In this document: piece after piece, positions 42,285 through 54,993 of the stretch | Layout of the letters: the number at the start of each line of letters is the position of its first letter | How positions within the stretch are numbered: the first letter of the stretch is position 1 | DNA from: Pseudovirgaria hyperparasitica | Taxonomy: Eukaryota | NCBI GenBank assembly: GCA_010093815.1 | Contig: ML996577.1 | DNA length: 64,000 bases | Direction: 5' to 3' (one strand) | Notes under the pieces: model-generated | What the model was told of the DNA's origin: nothing | Database searches by the model: none | The model's input: only the letters and a program-made list of their open reading frames with translations | Program-made: the position numbers and the translations under genes

Positions 42285-43132
42285 TTACAGGGCGATGGCG
42301 GCGAGCACGACGGCTGCTACGGCACCCATGCCAGCGGTGACCTTTCCAGCCGCACCGGTGGGAGCGGGAAGGGGAGTGTACACGGGGGTTGAGACAGAGG
42401 TGTACAAGCTGGTGGGCACACCAACTGGGCCGGTGGGCTGAATGATGGTCGGGGCGGGGCCGTTTCCGGTAGGAGCCCACCAAGTGGTAGGGAAGGGGGC
42501 GTTGGAGGAGACAGTAGCACTGCACGGCACAGTAGTGTACTCGACAGACGGCTCAACAGTGGGCTCCGCGGATGGCTCGACATACGAATCGACATACGAC
42601 TCAGGGACGGGCTCGACGGGTGAAGGAGTAGGAGCGTCGCTTGCAGAGCTGAGCGTGATGGTTGCAGGAGCGTCTGGGAAGGTGAAGCCGAACTGGGTAG
42701 AGTATTGGAAGATGCGCGGGTCGGACTCATCGACGAGCTGAATGCCGTAGCCGGAGCCAACGGTGGGAACAAGCTTGGGGAACTGCGCGAGTGTGGGCGT
42801 CCAGATGAAGGAGCCGGTGTTCGGCGCGGAGATGGCGATGGGCGAGTCTTGAAGCACGCAGTTGGTGGACTGACCGATGCAGAGCCAGAGCGTTACCGGG
42901 CCAGGCGAGCTGGGCTGCCAGGTGATGGTGAACGCCTTGTTGAGGGTGACTTGCTGGTCGGTTGTTAGTGGATATGTACAGGGTGGTTCGCGCAGGAGCA
43001 ACATACCTCAGCGAGTTCCGGGTGGCCGATGGAGTTGCCATTGGGAACGTCGCCAACAGCGTGAACCTGGGCGCTGGCAATGGCAGCAAGGCCAGAGACG
43101 AAGAAAGCAGCAATTGAAGTCTTGGAGAACAT
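42285..43132 (-). CDS. Ser/Thr/Pro-rich GPI-anchored cell-surface protein (Kre9/Knh1-like N-terminal domain); intron 42954..43006
   Basis: Signal peptide MFSKTSIAAFFVSGLAAIASA; domain motifs FTITWQP, VTLWL..G, IA.SAPNTGSFIWTP, YGIQL and FQYSTQF; S/T/P linker; PTGAA omega region followed by a hydrophobic C-terminus. Confidence 0.88.
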
Positions 43133-43690
43133 TCTGACTGAATTGTTGTGAGGAAGTGAGACAGGTGGAAAGTGGAGGAGATGCTTGAAAGGGTTGATAA
43201 GAGAGTCAAGTAAAGAGTGACTGGGCAAGGAAGCCGTGAGAGATGGAGTCAAAGAGTGGATGAAGCACAAATGCCTCTTGATATAAGATAGCCTACTGTG
43301 AGCTGAGATGGAGTGAGAAGACGAAGAAGAGGTGACTGGGGCAGTGCATCGTGGGCATCGTGGCCGTCTTAACGGGCTGATGTCTGGCGGCGTAGACTGA
43401 ACAGGGATCAGGGGTGTAAAGGGCTGGACAGTCATGGGTCATGGGTCAAGAGTAATTGTTATTACAGGAAGGAGCGACCGAGGATGACAAGCTGCACGCT
43501 CTACCTCATGTAGGCAAGCCCCAACCAGCGTAACCAGCCTGCGCGACTTCCAAGGTTGGAGGAAGGAAGGCGCCACGAGCCAATCAGCGCGTGCAGAATC
43601 CCCAGAATCCGGCGAATTTGGTGATTACGGCGTGCAAGTGGAGCCCCGTTTAAGATTGTCGTGTTGCTAGCGTGCGCTCGTCTAAATTTG

Positions 43691-43721: not shown

Positions 43722-46093
43722 TTGCTGCCTGAGGAAGAAGCGAATATCCTCTCTTCTCAGGCCAGACCAGACAACGACCACAACGCACAGGAGTCTCATT
43801 CTCCACCACAAAATGTCGCAATTCTGTCTAGGAACTGTTACTAACCTTGTGCTCAGACGCTTCACAATTGCAACCTCACCTCTACCGTCGCAGCCGCACA
43901 TCATAGTCATCGCACTCTCAAGCAAGCCATCGTTCAGCCCGTCAATAATTCAATGCCGCCCCATTCTGCCTCGCCTACCACCACCACCACACCCTCTCCC
44001 CAATCCAGCGCCGCCATCAAGCCATCTCCAAACGCACAATAATGAAAATACCGCCGCCAGCCAGCATGGCGCGGCCGGCACCCAGTCACCGCAATGTAAC
44101 CTGCGACGCCCACGCCGACGCCGGGCCCTTTTCCGCAAATGAATTGCGCCGCAGCACACCAAATCGGCAGATTACCATCAATCACCCTACCGGCCAGGTT
44201 CGGACTTCCCAACGTCCTTTTCCTTCTTCTCACATGCCGCCATACCTCACTCACTCACAGACATACTCTCTCTACGCGTCATCAATAACATCAAAGCCTC
44301 ACACCACCTCATCACAACTAGGAGCTTTTTTTCTTCTATCGATACCAATCAATCACACATCCCAGTTGATTCATACTAAAATTACGATCCGCCCCGTGCC
44401 GCTCGCTCGCTGCCACTTTGTGTGATCCCAGTGTCGTCTTGATTCATTCACTCACTCACTCATTCATTCATCCATCCCACTCCACTAAGAATAATTGTCC
44501 TGCGGTATAAACTAGACCTATGCCGCAGCAGCCACATCCCACCTCCCAAGAACTATAATCCCGCCATCCACATATATCACATCTCGTATCCCGCAGCTCA
44601 GCGCAAGAAAACCAAAAAAAACCAAAACAAATTCCCCTAAACGTTGCAGTAGTACTGGTGACGGCAGTAAACCATACATAAACCTCTGTTCCCCCTCCCA
44701 CCCGCCATTCGCCCGCACTACCCACCCCAACGTACCGTACTCCCCCCCCCCGAAAAGCTAATTTCCCACACCCAGGAGTCTGGCCCTAACCCTGGCCCAT
44801 AGCCTCCGGGTGTGTGAGGTCCTGAGGGAACTGCCCGCACCAGGCTCCCCCGTTGTCCCTTTTCTTTCATTCTTGCTTTCGCTTTCGTGTCTTTCTTCGT
44901 ACTAAGTAATTATATATTAGAAGTCCCACCTACACAACAGTATTGCCTATTTCTGGGGCTGCAGTACTCCCAAACCCAAGGTTCAAGCGGGGCTCATTCA
45001 GCAACGGCTTGGCTTGGTTTCGTCTTGGCTGTCCGCGTCGCGTCGCGTCGCCTCACGTCGTATTGTGTCGTATCGCGCCTGTATGCTATCATCAATTTGC
45101 TCAATTAGCACGTAATTACCTGTAGTTTGTATCGCGTTGCAGTCAGTGCAGTCGAAGCACTCATTGAGCACGCCAGGACCCCCCTGGGTAGGGTGACTGT
45201 CAGCAGCCGACATAATTCCGGCAACATAGGCGTAAATGGAGGGTGACCACCACAGCACAGCCTCCATTTCTTTTGAGGAAACGACTCAGAAAGAGCAGTC
45301 CAGTGAATTAATGGAATATGAGAAGAGGTTTGGATAGTATGGCACGTTTTCGAGTTTCATCTATTAATCAGTCGCAATTGGTAAGAGGTACTAATATACT
45401 AACTTGGGTAGTCATCATGAAGAGTTCCAAATACGTAAGATACCTACGTACCAAACAAAGGTTTAGTGGTAGGTAGGTAATTACTGTACTGCAGTAATCA
45501 ATTCGTAGAGAGAATTGTGAACTAATTACATGTACAGCACAAGTACCTTACTTAGCCCCCGTCTGTGACCAGTACTTAGTTAGGTACCTCAGGTACATAG
45601 ACTCACAAGTGCCGTTTCAGAAATTCAGGCCAGGCGACGCGACGCGAGGCAGGCAGGCAGGCCAGTGACTTCACCTGCATGAGGTGCCGCCTCCCTCCTT
45701 GGCGATTGCGCGATGCGAGTGTCAAGTACCGGTTTGCACCAATTAGTCTGCACAAGTATGTCTGTCTGTCTGTCTGTATGAAGACGACAAAGCGAAGATA
45801 TCATAGTCTAGTTAATAGGCGCGACTCCTGGCTGCTGTGTGTATGCGTGTGCGTGTGTGTGTGGATATATAACACTAAGGTAGCATCCATGACTCCATGT
45901 GAAGCCAACCTGGAAGCAGGTTGACGATCATAAACGCGAAGAGTATCTAATATCCCCATCCAAAGAATTTACTCAAACATGACAGCGCCCGCCTTGCTGC
46001 AACGAGAGTTCAAAGAAGTAAAACGCCGTGGCCCATGCTGTACAATTGTTTTTCCCGCGTCTCATACATTACTACTGACCAACAAGAGCAAGC

Positions 46094-47587
46094 TCAACGC
46101 GCTGGCGGAGGCTCTTCACTCTCCTCCACATAGCCCAGCTCCCGGAACAGCTTCTCTGCGCCAAACGCCTCTACGTACGCAACCTCCTCGTCGTCCGTCA
46201 TCCGCTCCAGCTCTGTTAGTTCCTGATTGTGCCAGACGAAATGGCAGTCCTGCTCCTTGTTCTGCCCACACAACGGCTCCATGTCGCGCATGCTACCCGC
46301 CATCTGCGCCACAAACTGGTCCTCGCCGCCATACCCAGTGTGCTTCCAGAACGAGGGGCCTGAAATCATCGTCCCAAGCATCGTGCTGTTGAACGCAAAG
46401 GCCCCATAGTCAAGCGAAAACTTGCGCTGCCACGGCGAGTCGGTGCCGGTGACGACGCCGTCGTCGATGGTCGGTTTTTCCCAGTCCCCTGCGCGCAGGT
46501 TGCCGACCGGAAACACCCCAACGCGAACGAGCTTAGTCATGAGCGTCAGGAGTTCCGGGAGGATCTTGTTGTCGTCGTCGAGGCCGTAGACGGGACCGTG
46601 CCCAAGCAGACCGCGTGGCTGCGGACGGCTAAGAGAATATGCAACCTGGAGGACGGCGTTCTTCTGCGCATTCCCATACGCTTTGGTCAGACCGTACGCA
46701 AAGTATACGTATGGCACGCCAGCGCGACGCAGCGTCTGCGAGACGATGGGATCGATGTCTGTGTCATCCTCGGCCACGATCCAGATAACTTGGAACCCTG
46801 TCTTTTGCGCTGCCTTGGCTTCTTTATCCATCCACGCACGGAGCGCACGTCCGTGCCGCCGAAAGTACTGTTGTCTCTGCGGCCCTGACTTTCCATTTGG
46901 CGAAGTTGCCGTCGTCATGTAAATGGTGGGCTTTCTCAATTCCAGCGATCCGAGTGACCAGGTCATCATATCGGGAAGGTTGTGGAGCGACCGGCGTAAT
47001 AGCTTTAACGCCTGTGCTTTGTCCAAGTGCTGCTGCGCACAGTACATGTCCAGAATTGTCTGACGCATAAATTCATTCACGTCCGCCTGATTTTTTCCTG
47101 GCCATATGTGCTTTTGAAGCGGTCTTGCTGGTATGAACGAGTAGGCGGCTGAAGGCTCGTAGAGCTTGGGAGCCATGGTGCAATTGCAGATTACGCATAT
47201 GTCGGCCGGCACGGCGGCTTGGAGGTCCAATGGGAACATGCCAGGCTCTGCTATCAGTGCATCGTACATGGGAGCGAATGCCCCGTCGTATGAGGTTGTG
47301 TAAGGTAAAGGACTGGAGGCGGCGTGGAAGGTCCCGTATACAACGAGGAAGAGGGCCGCAACCGCAATAATGATGGTGGATGAGCGCGACCGCATACTCT
47401 GTGACCTATACCAATGTGACGATTGCCCTGCCCATTCATGTAATTGTGAATATGCAGTATGATGTGATTGTTCCATCTCCAGCGAGGCGCGAGGAGGCTT
47501 GACCACATCGCCGTGGACGTCATCGTGTTGTTGGTCCCCATCGTCGAAGGTGCTGACTTCCGCCTTCATGACTGGCTCTCGTTCCAT
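46094..47587 (-). CDS. GT43-family glycosyltransferase (beta-1,3-glucuronosyltransferase/IRX9-14-like fold), type II membrane protein, intronless
   Basis: TM segment TIIIAVAALFLVVYGTF, then motifs in GT43 order: PTIYMTTAT, WIVAED, GNAQKNAVL, GPVYGLDDDN, VGVFPVG, RKFSLDYGAFAFNS, GGEDQFV and VWHNQ. The ORF-track start at 47680 is GTG; the first ATG is 47587. Confidence 0.82.
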   Translation of the reverse strand: MEREPVMKAEVSTFDDGDQQHDDVHGDVVKPPRASLEMEQSHHTAYSQLHEWAGQSSHWYRSQSMRSRSSTIIIAVAALFLVVYGTFHAASSPLPYTTSYDGAFAPMYDALIAEPGMFPLDLQAAVPADICVICNCTMAPKLYEPSAAYSFIPARPLQKHIWPGKNQADVNEFMRQTILDMYCAQQHLDKAQALKLLRRSLHNLPDMMTWSLGSLELRKPTIYMTTATSPNGKSGPQRQQYFRRHGRALRAWMDKEAKAAQKTGFQVIWIVAEDDTDIDPIVSQTLRRAGVPYVYFAYGLTKAYGNAQKNAVLQVAYSLSRPQPRGLLGHGPVYGLDDDNKILPELLTLMTKLVRVGVFPVGNLRAGDWEKPTIDDGVVTGTDSPWQRKFSLDYGAFAFNSTMLGTMISGPSFWKHTGYGGEDQFVAQMAGSMRDMEPLCGQNKEQDCHFVWHNQELTELERMTDDEEVAYVEAFGAEKLFRELGYVEESEEPPPAR

Positions 47588-49315
47588 ATCGAGCCGTGCG
47601 CTGTCGAAAGCTGTCGGATGGTGAAGGAAAGATGGTTGAGGAAAGGGCAGTCCAGTACTCTTAAATTTCGCTTTCTGCACTCGTCGTCTCTTTCTGCGGC
47701 CGATTCAACAAAGTTAGCGGCACCTGTACTCTGGCGCGCGGTAAGGCATCTCAGGACGGGATTGTGGGGGTAAGACGACAGCGCATGCAAAAGTTGGGGA
47801 GATTGAGAGATTGGAATGATGAAAAGTGGCAGGAGTGAAAGAAGTCCAAGTTGGAGGGGAGTGTGGTAAGGCAGTCAGGCTTATCAGTCGAGCTGATGAA
47901 TGCGTAGTAAGAAAGGTACGAAGGCTGCTGATGCCCCCACAGCAAGGGTGAAGGGTGAAGCATCACATAAAATGACAGACACTAGGTCCACATTCAGAAA
48001 GAAATAGAGGGGTCAGTGATCGAGACGCTCAATTTAGGGCTAAATCAGCCGACGATCCGACGCCTCCTGCACCCACAGCAGAGTCCAGAGCTTGAAGATG
48101 AAAGCCATCTGAGTCCTGGTGCCCCCTATTCGTAATTCCGTATCCTGTCATACCGTTGTGTTATAACAGCGATCTCTCGAAGAAGACTCGAAGAAGGCAT
48201 GTCTGCTTAGAGTCTCGTCGAGAGGGCCAGCCAACCCTAATGTTTCGTCGACTCATGCCGACTTGATGCAAGGTAATACACATAAGCCTCCGGCAGGGGG
48301 AGCATATCCATCCAGTAAGATAAGCTGAAGCGCAGCGGCTGTATTCTATTGTACCAATCAGTGTATCCTGCAGCAACTGTCATCCGCCATCCAGTATCCA
48401 GCATCCAGCATGGAGGTGGCACCTAAGTAGTTGCGGCGCAGTGTGCAACGCTCGATATGTCAAGAAGATGTTTCGTTGTTCGTAGCAGGTGTACGACGAG
48501 GCCTGATGGAGAGAAACTCTCTGTATTACTACTATCGGGCATGAGGTGGGAACAGTGGATTGATTTGTGGACGTTCCGGACGCCAACTTGAATCGATGTG
48601 TCCAGTCAGCATCTATTATTATTCCATCTATCCAAGTGGCGATTTCCGCAGGTTGCAGGTCTCGTAGAACCCCTGGAAACGGACAGGGAGAGCGGCCAAC
48701 TATCAAGGGGCTGTTTCGTTCTCTGCAAAATTGAATGAGACTCAAAAGCTCAAGAGCAGCTCATATATATAATTTTTTGGCTTGCGGTGCGTGCGGGTGC
48801 AGCAATATAGTAGTAGAAGCCAAGTCACCCATTAGTAGAGGAGGATTTCTCGGAACAGGGAGGCACCTAGCTATTCAGGCCCAGTCCACTAGCTGGAGAG
48901 CAGAGAGAGACAGCCGCGCTAGGTCTGGTTGGCTGCCCGTCCACATCCATCTCCTCATCTGGCTCCCCTAAACTTTCCCCCTATCGTTCTCGTGACTTGA
49001 TCTTCATCTTCACTTTTTCATCCGTTGCACTCATTCTCTGTCTCACCCACCTCCTCTCTTTTTGCCTTGCCGCATTCTCACTTCGTTGCAGTCCTTTGAC
49101 GAGTACATCGCCAATCCTCCCGGCGTGTCTCTTCTACCTTGGCTGTCCGGAAAATCCTCCACGCCTGTAATCCTTCGCTTTCTTCGCCAACAGCTTCTTA
49201 CGCGCCTTTCTCTACTGCGCCTGTATCCTCATCCTCCCTCTGAACACACTATCTACAAAGCTTCCCGATCGCCTCACTTACGCTCCATACTAAGATTCTC
49301 TATACTGGGAATAAA

Positions 49316-51607
49316 ATGTCCACTATGATGATTGGCCACCGGCGGATACAGATACGAGCGGTCCTATTCGTTGCAGTCATCTTCGTTCTGATCCTCATTT
49401 TCACGGCCTCGTCCACGGGCCTCCACAACCGCTTTCCTCCCTTCAGACCTCATATTCCATCAACAAGCGAGACCACCAAATCACCGAATTCCTCAACCGA
49501 TCCCACATTCGATCATACCTATGACAATATTGACAAAGCACCCGCCTCGGGTGAGAAGGCTCACGACCCATGTGTCCAAGTAGCTCTGAAGGATGGCGGG
49601 ACTTCACCACAAAAAACTGATGGAACATGGGTGCTTGTCACTGGAGGAGCTGGCTTCATCGGTTCAAATCTGGTGGACCGACTGCTCGATCTTGGTTACA
49701 AAGTCCGTGTGTTTGACAGTCTCTACACCGGCTTCCTACGCAATGTTCCTCTGGACGACAATCGCATTGAGTTTGTCTTTGGTGACATTATGGATCCAAA
49801 AGCGTTGGAGCGGGCTGTCAAGGGAGTAGACTACGTCTATCATTTGGCTGCCATGTCCAAGGTAGTACCCTCGCTCAAAAACCCTGAAATGGCTCGTTTC
49901 TGCGTTGAGGTGAATGCGCTCGGAACCTGGAATGTTCTCAATGCCGTTCGTGCAAAGGGTGATATCAAGAAGGTCATCTACGCTGCTTCTTCCACCTACT
50001 ACGGCAACAACAAGCCTCCCCATAGCGAGGAACAAGCTCCCGACTTCCTCACTCCTTATGCTGCTAGTAAATACGAGGGAGAACTCCAAATGCAGATGTT
50101 TGATCGTCTGTTCTCCGTACAGACCATTTCGACACGCTTCTTCATGGTTTACGGTCCTCGCCAGCCCAGCACCGGCGCTTATGCCATTGTCACTGGTGTT
50201 TTCGCGAAGCAGGCAGCCGACGGCAAGCAACTGACCATCGAGGGCGATGGTTCCCACTACAGAGACTTTATCCACGTTTCGGACATTGTAAACGGTCTGA
50301 TCTTGTCTCAGCAATCCCAGGATCTGCACGGCAACGTGGTCAATCTTGGCACTGGAACGGCCTTTTCTGTTCAAGATGTTGCCGATCTTGTGTCCAAAGA
50401 CCAGGTCCACATAGATGGTCGCAAGAATGATCTGGAGGGCACTCTTGCTGATACCTGCAGGATGAAACAACTCCTTAACTACAAGGCGAAGATGGACTTT
50501 ACAAAAGAAATGAGCTATATGGTCAAGGAGACAATGGAAGGTAACGTTTTCATGCAAAAATGGCTTACGCCGCTTCACGCACTCTCAGCCCCGCATCTCC
50601 TTGCTCCTGGGACCCCAGTTTTCAAGTGGCCCAAGGTTCAGAACGATCTGGATGAACTTATTTCATCCTTGGGCAACATCGACACTGCCTCTGACAATGT
50701 TGAACGTAGCATCACCGTCATCCCGTTCAGCCTAGAGAAGAACGATTCCTGGCTCTTCGGCGATATGCTTCTCAATACCATCCATTCTTTGGTACGTTTT
50801 GGTGGTGTCACCCAATACATCGTTGCACCGACAGACAAGGCTGCGCTAGAGCTTTGTATCGAGCTCAATGTTCCTACCTACGACGCTCAGACGGTCAACC
50901 CAGCCGACCTTCTTCATACGCTACTTGGTCTCAACTTCAATGTTCACTTTGCTCAGCTCGGAAATTCGTATGTCAGTCCCGTGCAGACATTTGTACAGGA
51001 AGCATCCAGTAAGAACGGCAATGCCGATCTCATCCAGGCCACTCCATTTGGCGATGTCTTCGTTCGTGCCAACGAAAACTCTCGCACCGCGAGCGCAGCT
51101 TGGTCCCAACAGAAGCCATCATTACCTGCTAATGATATTTTCGTTCCTGCGACATGGCCCGAAAGCCTTACTTTGAAACGCGCAAAGTTCGAAGTGTCTA
51201 CTCTCTGTAAGGGTAGCCTTGGGAAGGGATCTGCCACAAATACGAACGACCAAAAGGCGAAGGCCTCCGAGGAGGCCTTACATCCGAGCGCTGCATACGC
51301 TGCTGAAGCTCAACCAACCTCGGGTCTCTTCCAAGGCAAAGCCAGCCCCGAAAAGCGTGCAGCACCTGCTAAGGCACCTACCGGCCTTTGCGACAGTTCT
51401 CGCTTCTACGTCCCGGCCAGCTGCTCGACCACAAATACCAAATTTACCAACGCTGAGGCCAAAACCATCAAGGAGGCTCTTTCGAACGTTGAACTCTGGC
51501 ACATGACCGAGTGTGAGGACAAAGAGCACTGCGACCGCCAGCAGACGGTACCATTCCGCTGGGTTCAAAGTAAGCCCGACCTGGCTGCTACTGGCGGTCT
51601 GTGCTGA
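49316..51607 (+). CDS. Membrane-anchored NAD-dependent NDP-sugar epimerase/dehydratase (extended SDR) fused to a GT77/nucleotide-diphospho-sugar-transferase-like domain, intronless
   Basis: TM segment AVLFVAVIFVLILIF; SDR motifs VLVTGGAGFIGS, YHLAA, YAASSTYYG, catalytic YAASK, RFFMVYGPRQ and GDGSHYRDFIHVSD; C-terminal DMLLNTIHSL...YIVAPTDKAALELC...LLGLNFNVHF. The SDR call is strong; the C-terminal domain call is weaker. Confidence 0.85.
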   Translation: MSTMMIGHRRIQIRAVLFVAVIFVLILIFTASSTGLHNRFPPFRPHIPSTSETTKSPNSSTDPTFDHTYDNIDKAPASGEKAHDPCVQVALKDGGTSPQKTDGTWVLVTGGAGFIGSNLVDRLLDLGYKVRVFDSLYTGFLRNVPLDDNRIEFVFGDIMDPKALERAVKGVDYVYHLAAMSKVVPSLKNPEMARFCVEVNALGTWNVLNAVRAKGDIKKVIYAASSTYYGNNKPPHSEEQAPDFLTPYAASKYEGELQMQMFDRLFSVQTISTRFFMVYGPRQPSTGAYAIVTGVFAKQAADGKQLTIEGDGSHYRDFIHVSDIVNGLILSQQSQDLHGNVVNLGTGTAFSVQDVADLVSKDQVHIDGRKNDLEGTLADTCRMKQLLNYKAKMDFTKEMSYMVKETMEGNVFMQKWLTPLHALSAPHLLAPGTPVFKWPKVQNDLDELISSLGNIDTASDNVERSITVIPFSLEKNDSWLFGDMLLNTIHSLVRFGGVTQYIVAPTDKAALELCIELNVPTYDAQTVNPADLLHTLLGLNFNVHFAQLGNSYVSPVQTFVQEASSKNGNADLIQATPFGDVFVRANENSRTASAAWSQQKPSLPANDIFVPATWPESLTLKRAKFEVSTLCKGSLGKGSATNTNDQKAKASEEALHPSAAYAAEAQPTSGLFQGKASPEKRAAPAKAPTGLCDSSRFYVPASCSTTNTKFTNAEAKTIKEALSNVELWHMTECEDKEHCDRQQTVPFRWVQSKPDLAATGGLC

Positions 51608-52295
51608 GCGTTTCCGAACAATGTTTCATGAGCAACGCCAGGGGCAGAGGATGATATTGCAGTGATGAAGAGGAAGCGCGAGAGTTCCTGAAATCTTTCA
51701 AAATGGCGCTACATACTTCTGATCAAGTCGGGCAAGTCGGGCATTTTGAGGTGCAACCCTGGTACAGGACGAGGCGTTATCTCAGGCGTAGGCGTGGACA
51801 TACACTTCCGTTATTATTATTTTGTCGTGTGAAATCTCCCCCATTACGTCAGTGTGCCTTTGGAGATTTCCGTCGATTCATAGCGCTTCTAGACCTGCCT
51901 TTAAAACTCGAGGTGGGTCTCGGATGAGAGGGAGAGGAATGTGTGATCCCGCGCGGATCATGGAAGAGGGCTTTTTTTGTAAAGCTGCTCGTTGTATAAT
52001 ATTCTTCTAGTCTGCCGGACTGTCACGCTTTCCTTATACCGTATTTTTTTGGGCATTCCCAGGTGGGGATTCATATGAGCTCTCCAAAAATGGCTACGAC
52101 CGTAACACTATGATCATATAATCATTTGCATGAACTTCTTTGTGTCTTGGTGCAAAATTGGGCTGGCTGATGTATTTCACCCTATATATAGTTATATATA
52201 TAGTTCAAGTAAAGTAAGAGTAAAAAGAGTACGATGAAATAGAGTTTTGTATCAGAACGGGCCACGGCTACGATAAATGACTCAAAATTGCAAAA

Positions 52296-52390
52296 CGACA
52301 AGGGCAGGACTCGAACCTGCGCTCCCGAAGGAATGTGATGCCGGATAGGAATATTCGAGTCACACGCGTTAACCACTCCGCCACCTTGCC
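52296..52390 (-). tRNA. tRNA-Ser(CGA) with a 14-nt intron
   Basis: Sequence GGCAAGG TGGCGGAGTGGTTAACGCG TGTGA CT-CGA-A [TATTCCTATCCGGC] A TCACA, long variable arm TTCCTTCGGGAG, GGTTCGAGTCC T-loop and CCTTGTC-G, followed by TTTT (Pol III terminator). Confidence 0.95.
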
Positions 52391-53001
52391 ATAGATTGAT
52401 AGAATATCCCGACAGTTGACTTATCACAGACTAATCTGGGGGAACAAGTGCGGCCTCAGGATGCGGCTTCTTTTTGTTCTGGTGGGGCACTATCACTGGA
52501 CGGATGAATGAAAGTGGGGGCATTTGGCAGGTATCATTCAGGTATTCTATAAATGTGACTACAGTAAGTAAACATGTGTCATGCTTTATTATAGTTCTCA
52601 GAGGACCTAATCATACCAATCTATAACCTCCATGGCCCCCAATACCTACCGCAAATCAGAATCAATCAATCAATCAATCATAGCAAAAGAAGTGATCAAG
52701 ACCTCTCTACTTCAGAACGCAGCAGAAAGCCAATTACTTTTCATTGTTTCAATTTGTAACATGATCATCATGTGAGGTAGCTAGTCTATCTATATGCGAC
52801 TTTTTTTTCTCAATTCTACTTTGCTACCAACCGAAGCAGCAAGCCGTCAGAACATGTTTTCGAAGTGCACGAACGTAGCCGTGGACCTGGTGGGATTCAT
52901 GGGATGGGATGCAGTGGGATGATAACATCATGTCCGAGCTCCACATTTCCCCCCACCCCTTCTCGTCCCTCGGCTCCCTCCCAAAAGAAAAATGCGCATT
53001 T

Positions 53002-53648
53002 TTACACCATGGCAATGCACTCAATCTCCACCGGCACATTCTTAGGCAGGGTCTTGACAGCGACGCAGCTGCGCGCGGGCTTGTGCGTAAAGTGCGTCTC
53101 GTACGACGCGTTCATGGCGGCGAAATTGGCCATGTCGTCGAGGAAGACTGTGGTCTGTAGTAGTCGAGGTATGTTAGTTTTTTGTGCGTTTTGTTGGGGC
53201 TGCTGTGTATGTATTTCTTGTGCTTTATGTGTGTGTCTCTTTGTGTTTGTGTCTACGGGGTGGGCATGGGAGGAGGAGGAGGACAGGATGTACCTTGATG
53301 ACTTTGGAGATGTCGGAGCCTGCTTCTTTGAGGATGGCCTTGATGTTGGCGACGCAAGCGGTGGTGAGGTCGCCAATGCTGCCCTCGACGATCTTTCCCG
53401 TGGAGTCCATGGGGATTTGGCCCGAGAGGAAGATTGTGGGGCCGACAATTATGGCTTGGGACTGTTGGGGTTGTGAGTCAGATCATCATGATAGGGACTG
53501 AGGCTGGACGAGGGCAGGGAAGAAAGTACGGAGGAGCGTACGTATGGGCCGGCAGCTGGTCAATTGGTTAGCTTGGCTACCGTATGAGGATTGAGGAACG
53601 CATACGTGGTGCTGCCTCAGCAGAGAAGACCTTCTTCATCTCAGCCAT
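53002..53648 (-). CDS. RidA/YjgF/YER057c/UK114 reactive imine deaminase (Mmf1/Hmf1-like), 4 exons; possible upstream start at 53777
   Basis: Spliced MAEMKKVFSAEAAP|PAGPY|SQAIIVGPTIFLSGQIP...VIK|TTVFLDDMANFAAMNASY...KPARSCVAVKTLPKNVPVEIECIA. Includes a 14-nt micro-exon at 53542..53555. Confidence 0.93.
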
Positions 53649-54237
53649 TTTGTATGTGGTTGTTCGGTAAGTGTGATTGGATGATGGATATGGCAGAGGT
53701 ACCCGGGCAAATTGTCGTCGGATTGGAGAGAAGAGCCGTACAGTAGAAGATATGGCGCAGCAGGTCGGCAATTGCATGAGGAAGGAACAAGATAAGAGTG
53801 CGAGATTTATAACTCTTAGATTTTGTTTTGAGCTAGCCAAGGGACCTCTCGTGAGCTTGTCACCAAAATTAGGGTTGAGGTACGTGGTGGGGTCGAACGG
53901 GACTCCCCGCGAATCGCCGCGGATATGCGAAACACTAATGCGCTTCCCGATGTCGGCATTAATAGTGGTCTGAATCTCAAACTTTTGATCGACGTGTGGA
54001 AATGTACATGGGCTGTTGGGTTTGGTATCTTTATACGCAGGACCGGGGTGAAAAAATGCCTGCTCGTTGAAGAACGCGATCTTCTATATGTTTAAAGGCC
54101 GAAACTATCATTAAAACTTATTTTGAAGAACGCCGAATGCGCAAGGAAATATGCAATATCAATCGTGGATTCGTCGAATAGTGGGTGAGAATGATAGACG
54201 TCTAGTCAAAAGACATTACTTCCTCAATGCATGGGTA

Positions 54238-54993
54238 TTATTTGCTGCTCTCGGTTTGACCGGACAATAGAGTAATGGCTGGAGCATCGAGCTTATCGCG
54301 ACCTTTCAAGAAGTCTAGCTCAAGAATAAAGACGTAGCCCAGAAGAGTGCCTCCAAGCTGCTTAACCAGTGAGCCTGCTGCGGCTGCGGAGCCACCTAAT
54401 TCGACAGTTAGTATGTTCGAGTTGTACTTCATGATTGAAATGCAGGACCTACCCGTGGCTATTATGTCGTCCACCACGAGCACACGCTGGCCGGTCTTGA
54501 CTCCGTCACTTTGCATTTGGAAGAAATCCTCTCCATACTCTTTCTTGTAACTAGCAGTCACGGTGGGACCGGGAAGCTTGCCTCTCTTACGAACGGGAAC
54601 GAACGCAGCTCCTAACCGCAGCGCTAATGACGGCCCAAATAGAAAACCTCGTGCATCTAGGCCAACGATTACTTCAGGCCTTTGCTCTCCAAAGTGTTGT
54701 GTGATGTGTAGCTCCAGAGCTTTGATGAGCGACTCGTGCAAGATCGGGTCAGCGAAAATAGGCATGATATCCTCAAAGAGAATGCCAGGCTCAGGAAAGT
54801 CTGGGAATTGACGAAGGGCATTTTTTAGCTTTATCTTAAGACTGGAGAGTTCGGGGGAGCTGGTGGTGGTGGTGGTGGACTGTCCTCGCGGGGCATCTTG
54901 AGTAGTGGGGTCGATGGTTGACGATGAAGGATGGGCGGAGGTGGAGGGAATCGTGTTTGAAGGATGTGTCTGAGTGGAAGGCGAGGACATCAT
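54238..54993 (-). CDS. APT1: Adenine phosphoribosyltransferase, one short intron near 54397..54453
   Basis: Motifs [47 protein letters not shown] motif [13 protein letters not shown] and ELDFLKGR. Confidence 0.95.

Follow-up and report, generated by a model that had tools for sequence, protein, structure and literature searches.

The nearest described counterparts of the locus considered here include animal, plant and bacterial enzymes. Animal GlcAT-I/P/S (B3GAT1-3) are type II membrane glycosyltransferases of family GT43, and roles have been described for the catalytic and acceptor residues of GlcAT-I (PMC12118331; here and below, papers are cited for the parts of their text available to us). 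In plants, where the making of nucleotide sugars in the Golgi lumen is established, Golgi epimerases convert nucleoside diphosphate (NDP) sugars on site (PMC3355719), while the bacterial proteins WbpP and WbgU are 4-epimerases of uridine diphosphate (UDP)-N-acetylglucosamine. Here we analyse a 64,000-nucleotide stretch of the genome of Pseudovirgaria hyperparasitica (contig ML996577.1, assembly GCA_010093815.1; hereafter the window), in which a GT43 gene and a gene for a short-chain dehydrogenase/reductase (SDR) of the extended type with a C-terminal GT77-like domain lie head-to-head and point apart.

GT43 was found in none of the ascomycetes in a survey of 103 fungal genomes (PMC3652786) and only sporadically among about 400 fungal genomes (PMC4449007); the available text of the latter assigns the fungal GT43-like proteins no function and reports neither ascomycete members nor an SDR partner. 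An architecture of GT77 plus GDP_Man_Dehyd has already been listed for early-diverging fungi, also with no function (PMC8778642), in text that, so far as it is available, mentions neither a GT43 link nor ascomycetes; the window protein differs from those listed in that its GT77 domain has no DxD motif and is partnered with GT43. Searching the literature, though not journals behind a subscription or the bulk of supplements, we came upon no account of the gene pair or its fused forms, and no described fungal counterpart that makes nucleotide sugars in the lumen. The parts come from known families and their logic is known from plants; the SDR subfamily is uncharacterised, and the pair is undescribed in the literature searched.

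A conserved gene pair and its fused forms

The first-pass annotation of this locus, made from the sequence, had described two large head-to-head genes about 1.7 kb apart, both intronless among spliced neighbours and belonging to the GT43 and epimerase families. All of this stands. The start codons are 1,728 bp apart, transcript contigs cross both coding sequences without a joint and show three neighbours to be spliced (see below), and Pfam recognises GT43 in one protein (PF03360, E=7.6e-20, 72 bits against a curated cut-off of 27, aa 266-454) and Epimerase in the other (PF01370, E=3.7e-50, aa 106-345). Each protein has one hydrophobic segment near its N-terminus with basic residues in front, and hydropathy scans find the same arrangement in 44 of 58 GT43 relatives and 59 of 63 SDR relatives. 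From this we infer a type II topology that would place the catalytic parts of both proteins in the lumen of the endoplasmic reticulum or Golgi.

Twenty-three of the 58 GT43 relatives share a contig, recognised by an identical longest-contig size, with one of the 63 SDR relatives; the figure is 23 of 46 when contigs of at least 5.5 kb are counted, several contigs being only 6-12 kb long. Locus tags are consecutive for the pair in Diploschistes and several Exophiala assemblies, and linkage persists at about 45-60% protein identity. The pair occurs in scattered ascomycete genera, and both fungal loci that we fetched (L001 and L002; 2/2) are head-to-head with open SDR frames; a third locus of the same scan proved to be an unrelated bacterial SDR. 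Named relatives belong to lichen-forming genera and their allies (Lambiella, Agyrium, Varicellaria, Ptychographa, Xylographa, Trapelia and Diploschistes) and to Exophiala, Elsinoe, Hyaloscypha, Stipitochalara and a Xylariales isolate; the homologue searches scored 8,000 candidates each, most matches are nameless, and absence elsewhere is not proven by them. The flanking genes of the pair are not the same between loci, and no third conserved transferase gene was seen beside it in the window, L001 or L002.

The trees of the two families are also congruent. For 30 pairs, defined by the same longest-contig size or by adjacent locus tags, 21 of 27 splits are common to the GT43 and SDR trees, and patristic distances correlate with r=0.93; when the labels were shuffled 2,000 times, 0.2 splits were shared on average and never more than 3.

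In early-diverging fungi the same parts occur in one chain. Gene models of the chytrids Gaertneriomyces and Rhizoclosmatium encode SDR, GT77-like and GT43 domains in this order, two Cladochytrium models have a nucleotide-sugar transporter in front of the three, with a further hydrophobic segment after the transporter domain, and in a partial Olpidium model the end of the GT77-like part comes first and leads on into GT43. Allomyces and Blastocladiella have SDR plus GT77 without a fused GT43. Because the same parts are fused in chytrids, a coupling of SDR and GT43 is indicated. As judged from these comparisons the pair is a genuine conserved module, and the earlier proposal of a functionally coupled lumenal module gains support from the conserved linkage, the congruent trees and the chytrid fusion of the same parts with a transporter.

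In protists the SDR subfamily occurs in fusions with TPT/EamA transporters or with a GT8; the TPT/EamA-SDR fusions are transcript-derived (P0152, P0154, P0156, P0158, P0166 and P0169). Since the protist transporters are distant from that of Cladochytrium (about 20-25% identity), the transporter-SDR fusion probably arose twice. The fused transporter, the subfamily of which could not be fixed, is presumably like Cryptococcus Uxt1/2.

A proposed lumenal route and the points against it

We lean, with a confidence little better than even, towards the view that the pair is the split form of an old fungal secretory-pathway unit, in which a lumenal SDR converts the donor and GT43 transfers it to a glycan. 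An NDP-sugar would be imported by a nucleotide-sugar transporter, for which the basis is the fused domain in Cladochytrium and protist relatives only. Holding NAD+ and with its Ser-Tyr-Lys triad intact, the SDR would convert this sugar in the lumen, most likely by C4-epimerisation. GT43, which alone among the unit's transferases has an intact metal site, would then transfer the SDR product with inversion, probably in beta-1,3 linkage onto a galactose-like terminal residue, judging by the residues it shares with GlcAT-I. The acceptor would be a glycoprotein, a glycolipid or a wall or matrix polysaccharide, and the DxD-less GT77-like domain would probably act as a scaffold or hold the acceptor.

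Several observations weigh against such a unit. The orientation of the pair has been seen directly in two related loci only, and the transporter fusion is known among fungi from a single species, in which two gene models on short contigs show it. The intact GT77 of Allomyces, which sits beside an SDR without a fused GT43, suggests that the SDR at first supplied the GT77 domain, for which its product may have been meant. The nearest relatives of the ascomycete GT43s are those of Pucciniomycotina, and no named Pucciniomycotina SDR is among the 240 SDR matches listed, so that this GT43 lineage may work without an SDR. Given that the SDR reaches no NCBIfam cut-off and lacks the WbpP fingerprint, 4-epimerase activity is an extrapolation.

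A fuller version of the proposal is doubtful in our estimate: that transporter, lumenal SDR of a new class, GT77-type domain and GT43 form an undescribed assembly line building an acidic, uronic-acid surface or matrix polymer, as one polypeptide in chytrids and, in black fungi and those that form lichens or associate with roots, as two divergent genes. Lichens are reported to contain uronic acids, of which little has been characterised (PMC7164778, PMC8355462); an acidic product is for this reason attractive as a target, though unproven. Lichen acidic polysaccharides have been called a black box (PMC8355462), and the pair is kept across several lichen-forming genera; were the assembly line real, it would be the first genetic handle on these uncharacterised polymers. 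For a family that had been reported as absent from ascomycetes and without a known role in fungi, the conserved pair and the chytrid fusions would name all parts of one pathway, through which a novel glycan of fungi and a novel activity of the SDR could come to light.

GT43 protein

The predicted structure of the GT43 protein (mean predicted local distance difference test score, pLDDT, 91) has a fold nearest to that of human GlcAT-I/P/S, the Foldseek top 10 all being GlcAT chains (E 3e-15). We compared 59 aligned rows with the 17 key GlcAT-I residues given in the S2 table of PMC4449007. Eleven of these are identical (D113, D194-N197, E227, W243, R247, D252, E281 and H308), R161 is conservatively replaced by Lys, and P82, Y84, R156, T309 and R310 are replaced consistently over the rows. 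Among the contacts to the donor UDP-glucuronic acid (UDP-GlcA), namely Y84, D113, P82, D195, R156, R310, R161, D194, D252 and H308, five are identical, one is conservative and four are replaced. The DDDN metal site is found in 58/59 rows and the catalytic Glu (E281 equivalent) in 57/59. Metal site, catalytic base and the full galactose-acceptor set are retained, and the nucleotide and phosphate contacts are altered.

The protein shares with GlcAT-I/P/S its fold, its predicted type II topology, DDD metal site, catalytic Glu, E227/W243/R247/D252 and H308; unlike them, it has replaced the uridine, ribose and phosphate contacts P82, Y84, R156 and R310, has an extra Cys-containing stem, and is linked or fused to an SDR. 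It contains 2 of the 8 strict GT43 motifs of PMC4449007, below the three-motif mark, and the rust GT43-like proteins in that paper likewise score 0-3 of 8. On these residues GT43 is apparently active but divergent, and its donor cannot be read from sequence.

The retained residues also bear on a different division of labour, which we consider unlikely: GT43 would be an ordinary glucuronosyltransferase using imported UDP-GlcA, and the SDR would make a galacto sugar that an unlinked transferase installs as the GT43 acceptor. It would explain why the GlcA-binding set (H308, D194, D252 and a basic residue at R161) and all galactose-acceptor residues are kept; a galacto-type residue is exactly what a 4-epimerase yields, and Pucciniomycotina GT43s occur without an SDR so far as named SDRs among the matches listed can tell. 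Against it, the four replaced donor-side residues (P82, Y84, R156 and R310) are changed in nearly all 59 rows, and no third conserved transferase gene was seen beside the pair in the window or in L001/L002.

At NCBI some of these GT43s go under 'RNA polymerase II subunit A C-terminal domain phosphatase', a misnaming which suggests that they have been overlooked. We do not claim homology between the GT43 stem and the linker of the chytrid fusions, for which hhalign gave a weak match (9%).

SDR domain

The SDR domain has the TGxxGxxG glycine motif and the Ser/YxxxK triad, S225/Y248/K252 being invariant in 48/48 rows. Its closest solved structures include the 4-epimerases WbpP and WbgU, with which it shares the triad and the RQ..GAYA loop; unlike them it is eukaryotic and membrane-anchored and has other fingerprint residues. 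The sugar-pocket fingerprint of WbpP/WbgU consists of Ser, Asn, Ala and a gate Ser (PMC12820599), in place of which the window protein has K182, M277, I291 and T376 (S103 to K, N195 to M, A209 to I, S306 to T); across the rows, Ser103 is Lys in 48/48, Asn195 is Met in 46/48 and Ala209 is Ile, Val or Leu. No curated NCBIfam cut-off is reached by the SDR. We take the top match in the Protein Data Bank, 6wjb, to be PelX.

UDP-glucuronate decarboxylases (UXS/ArnA) have a Glu two residues past the catalytic Ser/Thr (PMC7984243); this Glu is absent from the SDR, Thr standing there in 48/48 rows. The carboxylate pocket of UDP-GlcA 4-epimerase is formed by Thr/Ser/Ser and the main chain of T178, with no acidic residue (PMC7984243). 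The run S225-S226-T227 is compatible with that pocket, yet WbpP has the same run, and position 277 is Met. Because the catalytic Ser opens an S-S-T run without Glu or Asp, an epimerase fits better than a decarboxylase (PMC7984243).

The SDR is a member of an uncharacterised subfamily, found also in dinoflagellates, giant viruses and bacteria, and is probably a 4-epimerase. Among possible substrates a UDP-uronic acid is the foremost candidate, though short of probable; a UDP-pentose or 6-deoxyhexose is less likely, some other sugar equally so, and an N-acetylhexosamine or its uronic acid, HexNAc(A), the least likely. Like plant GAE/UGlcAE, the protein is a membrane-anchored extended SDR that would make its donor in the Golgi (PMC3355719), and like MUR4/UXE1 (MUR4 being known to us from a cited title) it would be a Golgi-lumenal nucleotide-sugar epimerase. 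It differs from the plant epimerases in coming from another subfamily, nearest WbpP/WbgU, in its attached GT77-like domain and in its linkage or fusion to GT43.

The altered fingerprint also admits a reading to which we give little credence, in which the SDR is not a 4-epimerase and carries out another NAD-dependent step (C2, C3 or C5 epimerisation, or reduction), with the invariant Lys182 as catalytic acid/base, to give a rare sugar. K182 (48/48 rows) and M277 (46/48) are both unlike WbpP. In bacteria the members repeatedly have as neighbours genes for a nucleotidyltransferase, a HAD phosphatase and a CofD/YvcK-like protein, and this company hints at a route devoted to a rare sugar. Against this reading, 4-epimerases score best among solved structures whose activity is named, and no partner dehydratase or reductase was found with the fungal pair.

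In one long-branch fungal SDR-GT77like paralogue (P0123) the otherwise conserved AMSKVVPS and RFFM are altered and a long acidic stretch is inserted; this protein is possibly a pseudo-enzyme or has a new specificity.

GT77-like domain

The C-terminal 354 residues of the SDR protein are predicted to adopt a GT-A fold (pLDDT 84.7), the best structural scores, Z about 10-11, being reached against many GT-A and nucleotidyltransferase chains. The domain has no Pfam match in the window's own protein; of the 67 relatives aligned, 18 match PF03407/GT77 (E<=0.1), hhalign gives 99.8% between the domain and the Allomyces set, and Atlas feature and structure matches agree. The label GT77-like, given at first pass, is right as to fold and ancestry, but the DxD motif is gone: it is present in 0/62 ascomycete-type and 0/4 GT43-fused chytrid rows, but in 5/8 rows of Blastocladiomycota, which have no fused GT43. 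Because Q547-L-G549 replaces DxD, the domain is probably non-catalytic, and a scaffold or acceptor holder is its likely role.

LARGE is a two-domain copolymerase, and a LARGE-like enzyme with its own donor supply is a clearly unlikely alternative, in which a metal-free GT77-like domain and GT43 would alternate to make a polymer of repeating acidic disaccharides. It would make sense of the chytrid polypeptides, in which a GT77 of retaining type adjoins an inverting GT43, and of a GT77-like domain that is well folded by its predicted structure (pLDDT as above) and has many near-invariant residues. The DxD is missing, though, in exactly those lineages that have a GT43 partner, and the absence of a Pfam match in the window protein's domain also counts against copolymerisation.

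Origin of the pair

Fungal SDRs form one clade with a Shimodaira-Hasegawa-like approximate likelihood ratio test (SH-aLRT) support of 93 in a quick tree of 77 rows (2 rows without the anchor motif were skipped); Blastocladiomycota lie outside chytrids plus ascomycetes, and bacterial and giant-virus members outside the fungal clade. Fungal GT43s likewise form one clade (97/90), in which ascomycetes are sister (99/94) to Pucciniomycotina, the group whose GT43-like proteins are treated in PMC4449007. An alternative tree that joins ascomycete GT43s with chytrids and Olpidium is not rejected (approximately unbiased (AU) test, p=0.10), and an old chytrid-to-ascomycete transfer is possible on that tree. 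Within ascomycetes Exophiala groups with Elsinoe (100/100). A tree that puts Exophiala with the lichen clade, as the species tree does, is rejected at p=6e-11, the group having been picked after the gene trees were seen. A transfer of the pair between fungi is the probable explanation of the Exophiala/Elsinoe grouping, or else hidden paralogy.

These trees bear on the suggestion, made at first pass from the missing introns, foreign-looking families and neighbouring tRNA, that the pair may have been acquired horizontally. The tRNA is real (52295-52391, minus strand). As an insertion site it was rejected, as neither L001 nor L002 has a tRNA and no terminal repeats frame the pair. GC content at third codon positions (GC3) is 0.67 and 0.56 in the two genes, against 0.47-0.80 in 13 neighbouring coding segments, and no GT43 was found beside any of 30 pattern-matched bacterial or viral loci. 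Because of the fungal clades, the ordinary GC3, the lack of tRNA and repeats and the lack of a bacterial or viral GT43 neighbour, a recent acquisition from outside fungi is unsupported; the clades reach as far as chytrids, Blastocladiomycota, Olpidium or Pucciniomycotina. Ancient fungal ancestry with many losses fits the trees better, and we propose that the patchy ascomycete distribution arose mainly by loss, the pair having passed from one fungus to another at least once.

A foreign cassette of recent arrival, its genes joined by insertion history rather than function, is accordingly very improbable and as a recent event largely refuted. It would account for the lack of introns in both genes, the patchy distribution, the varying flanking genes, the clash of the Exophiala/Elsinoe grouping with the species tree and the bacterial and giant-viral members of the SDR subfamily. 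Both genes nonetheless fall in fungal clades, are fused in early-diverging fungi and keep their linkage at the divergence given above, and base composition, repeats and the 30 loci speak against it as already described.

Layout, transcription and neighbours

Table 1. Features of the gene pair and its surroundings, in window coordinates
Feature	Position	Strand	Remarks
GT43 gene, 497 aa, intronless	46094..47587	-	predicted cytosolic tail at the N-terminus, then anchor, stem with Cys and GT-A catalytic domain
GT43 predicted signal anchor, aa 72-91	47315..47374	-	hydropathy scan
GT43 catalytic domain, about aa 220-455	46223..46930	-	DDDN 337-340, E370, W386, R388, D393, catalytic E422, H453
Divergent intergenic region, 1,728 bp between start codons	47588..49315	.	
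SDR + GT77-like gene, 763 aa, intronless	49316..51607	+	
SDR protein predicted signal anchor, aa 13-32	49352..49411	+	hydropathy scan
Extended SDR domain, about aa 106-405	49631..50530	+	TGGAGFIG, triad S225/Y248/K252
SDR subfamily marks	within 49631..50530	+	S181-K182, M277, I291, T376
GT77-like (PF03407-related) GT-A fold domain, aa 410-763	50543..51604	+	Q547-L-G549 in place of DxD
tRNA-Ser(CGA) with intron, neighbour only	52295..52391	-	type and intron read by eye

The transcript evidence comes from two public runs of one sample, the run type of which is not on record. The runs behave as RNA, because their contigs skip canonical introns in three neighbouring genes (42953-43007, 53154-53294, 53461-53606 and 54393-54451). 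In both runs single contigs cross each coding sequence of the pair without a joint and, given that the three neighbours are spliced, we take both genes to be intronless and transcribed. Transcript-like contigs enter the intergenic region as far as 48236 and 48967, and the roughly 0.7 kb between is nearly uncovered, contig depth in mid-region falling to 1-3. This part is a candidate bidirectional promoter, contigs being unable to show starts; the intergenic region of the window has no conserved motif in common with L001/L002, the best being one 15-nt match. Contigs that extend over the 3' side of GT43, itself on the minus strand, also show splicing of a plus-strand GT..AG intron (45467-45537), which suggests an opposite-strand transcript overlapping the GT43 gene.

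One flanking spliced gene (42285-43321, minus strand) has a Pfam match to the Kre9/KNH domain and probably encodes a glycosylphosphatidylinositol-anchored wall protein; the other is small (52960-53830, minus strand) and by eye seems to resemble the RidA/YjgF family. In L002 an alpha-L-arabinofuranosidase gene lies behind GT43. Two Xylographa models (P0101 and P0103) merge the SDR with a downstream gene for a membrane-anchored GH79 (beta-glucuronidase family) protein. These apparent fusions were rejected as probable merged gene models, having a second membrane anchor and a truncated GT77-like tail, and a GH79 gene thus lies directly behind the pair in two species. Two entries labelled Elasticomyces elasticus (P0473 and P0477) have the same sequence as Exophiala sideris accessions for both genes, which probably reflects a mislabelled assembly and otherwise a very recent transfer.

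Bacterial and viral relatives

Of 19 bacterial pattern matches, 11 are full-length members of the SDR subfamily, 2 are weak and 6 are not SDRs. A generic viral scan returned nothing beyond SDRs of 32-45% identity, one made with the C-terminal alignment gave no confirmed match, and the bacterial and viral neighbourhoods of the SDR subfamily did not reveal its substrate. In Omnitrophota, Bacteroidota and Verrucomicrobiota (L086, L094, L097 and L098, partly L102) the SDR recurs in an operon with a GT2, a CofD/YvcK-like protein of 650-670 aa, a nucleotidyltransferase and often a HAD phosphatase, which looks like an undescribed nucleotide-sugar pathway.

GT43 has been reported absent from prokaryotes (PMC4449007, in its available text). 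Unnamed metagenome GT43 domains, apparently without anchors, were encountered in P0199, P0203, P0210, P0219, P0220, P0230, P0233, P0239 and P0254, in many cases joined to a GT2, GT90, sulfotransferase, methyltransferase or oxidoreductase domain, and may be prokaryotic or viral. Giant-virus SDRs (L103, L104, L107 and L108; others in L105-L113) are fused or adjacent to DUF3431 and lie among glycosyltransferases and methyltransferases; in L107 the SDR gene adjoins that for the major capsid protein.

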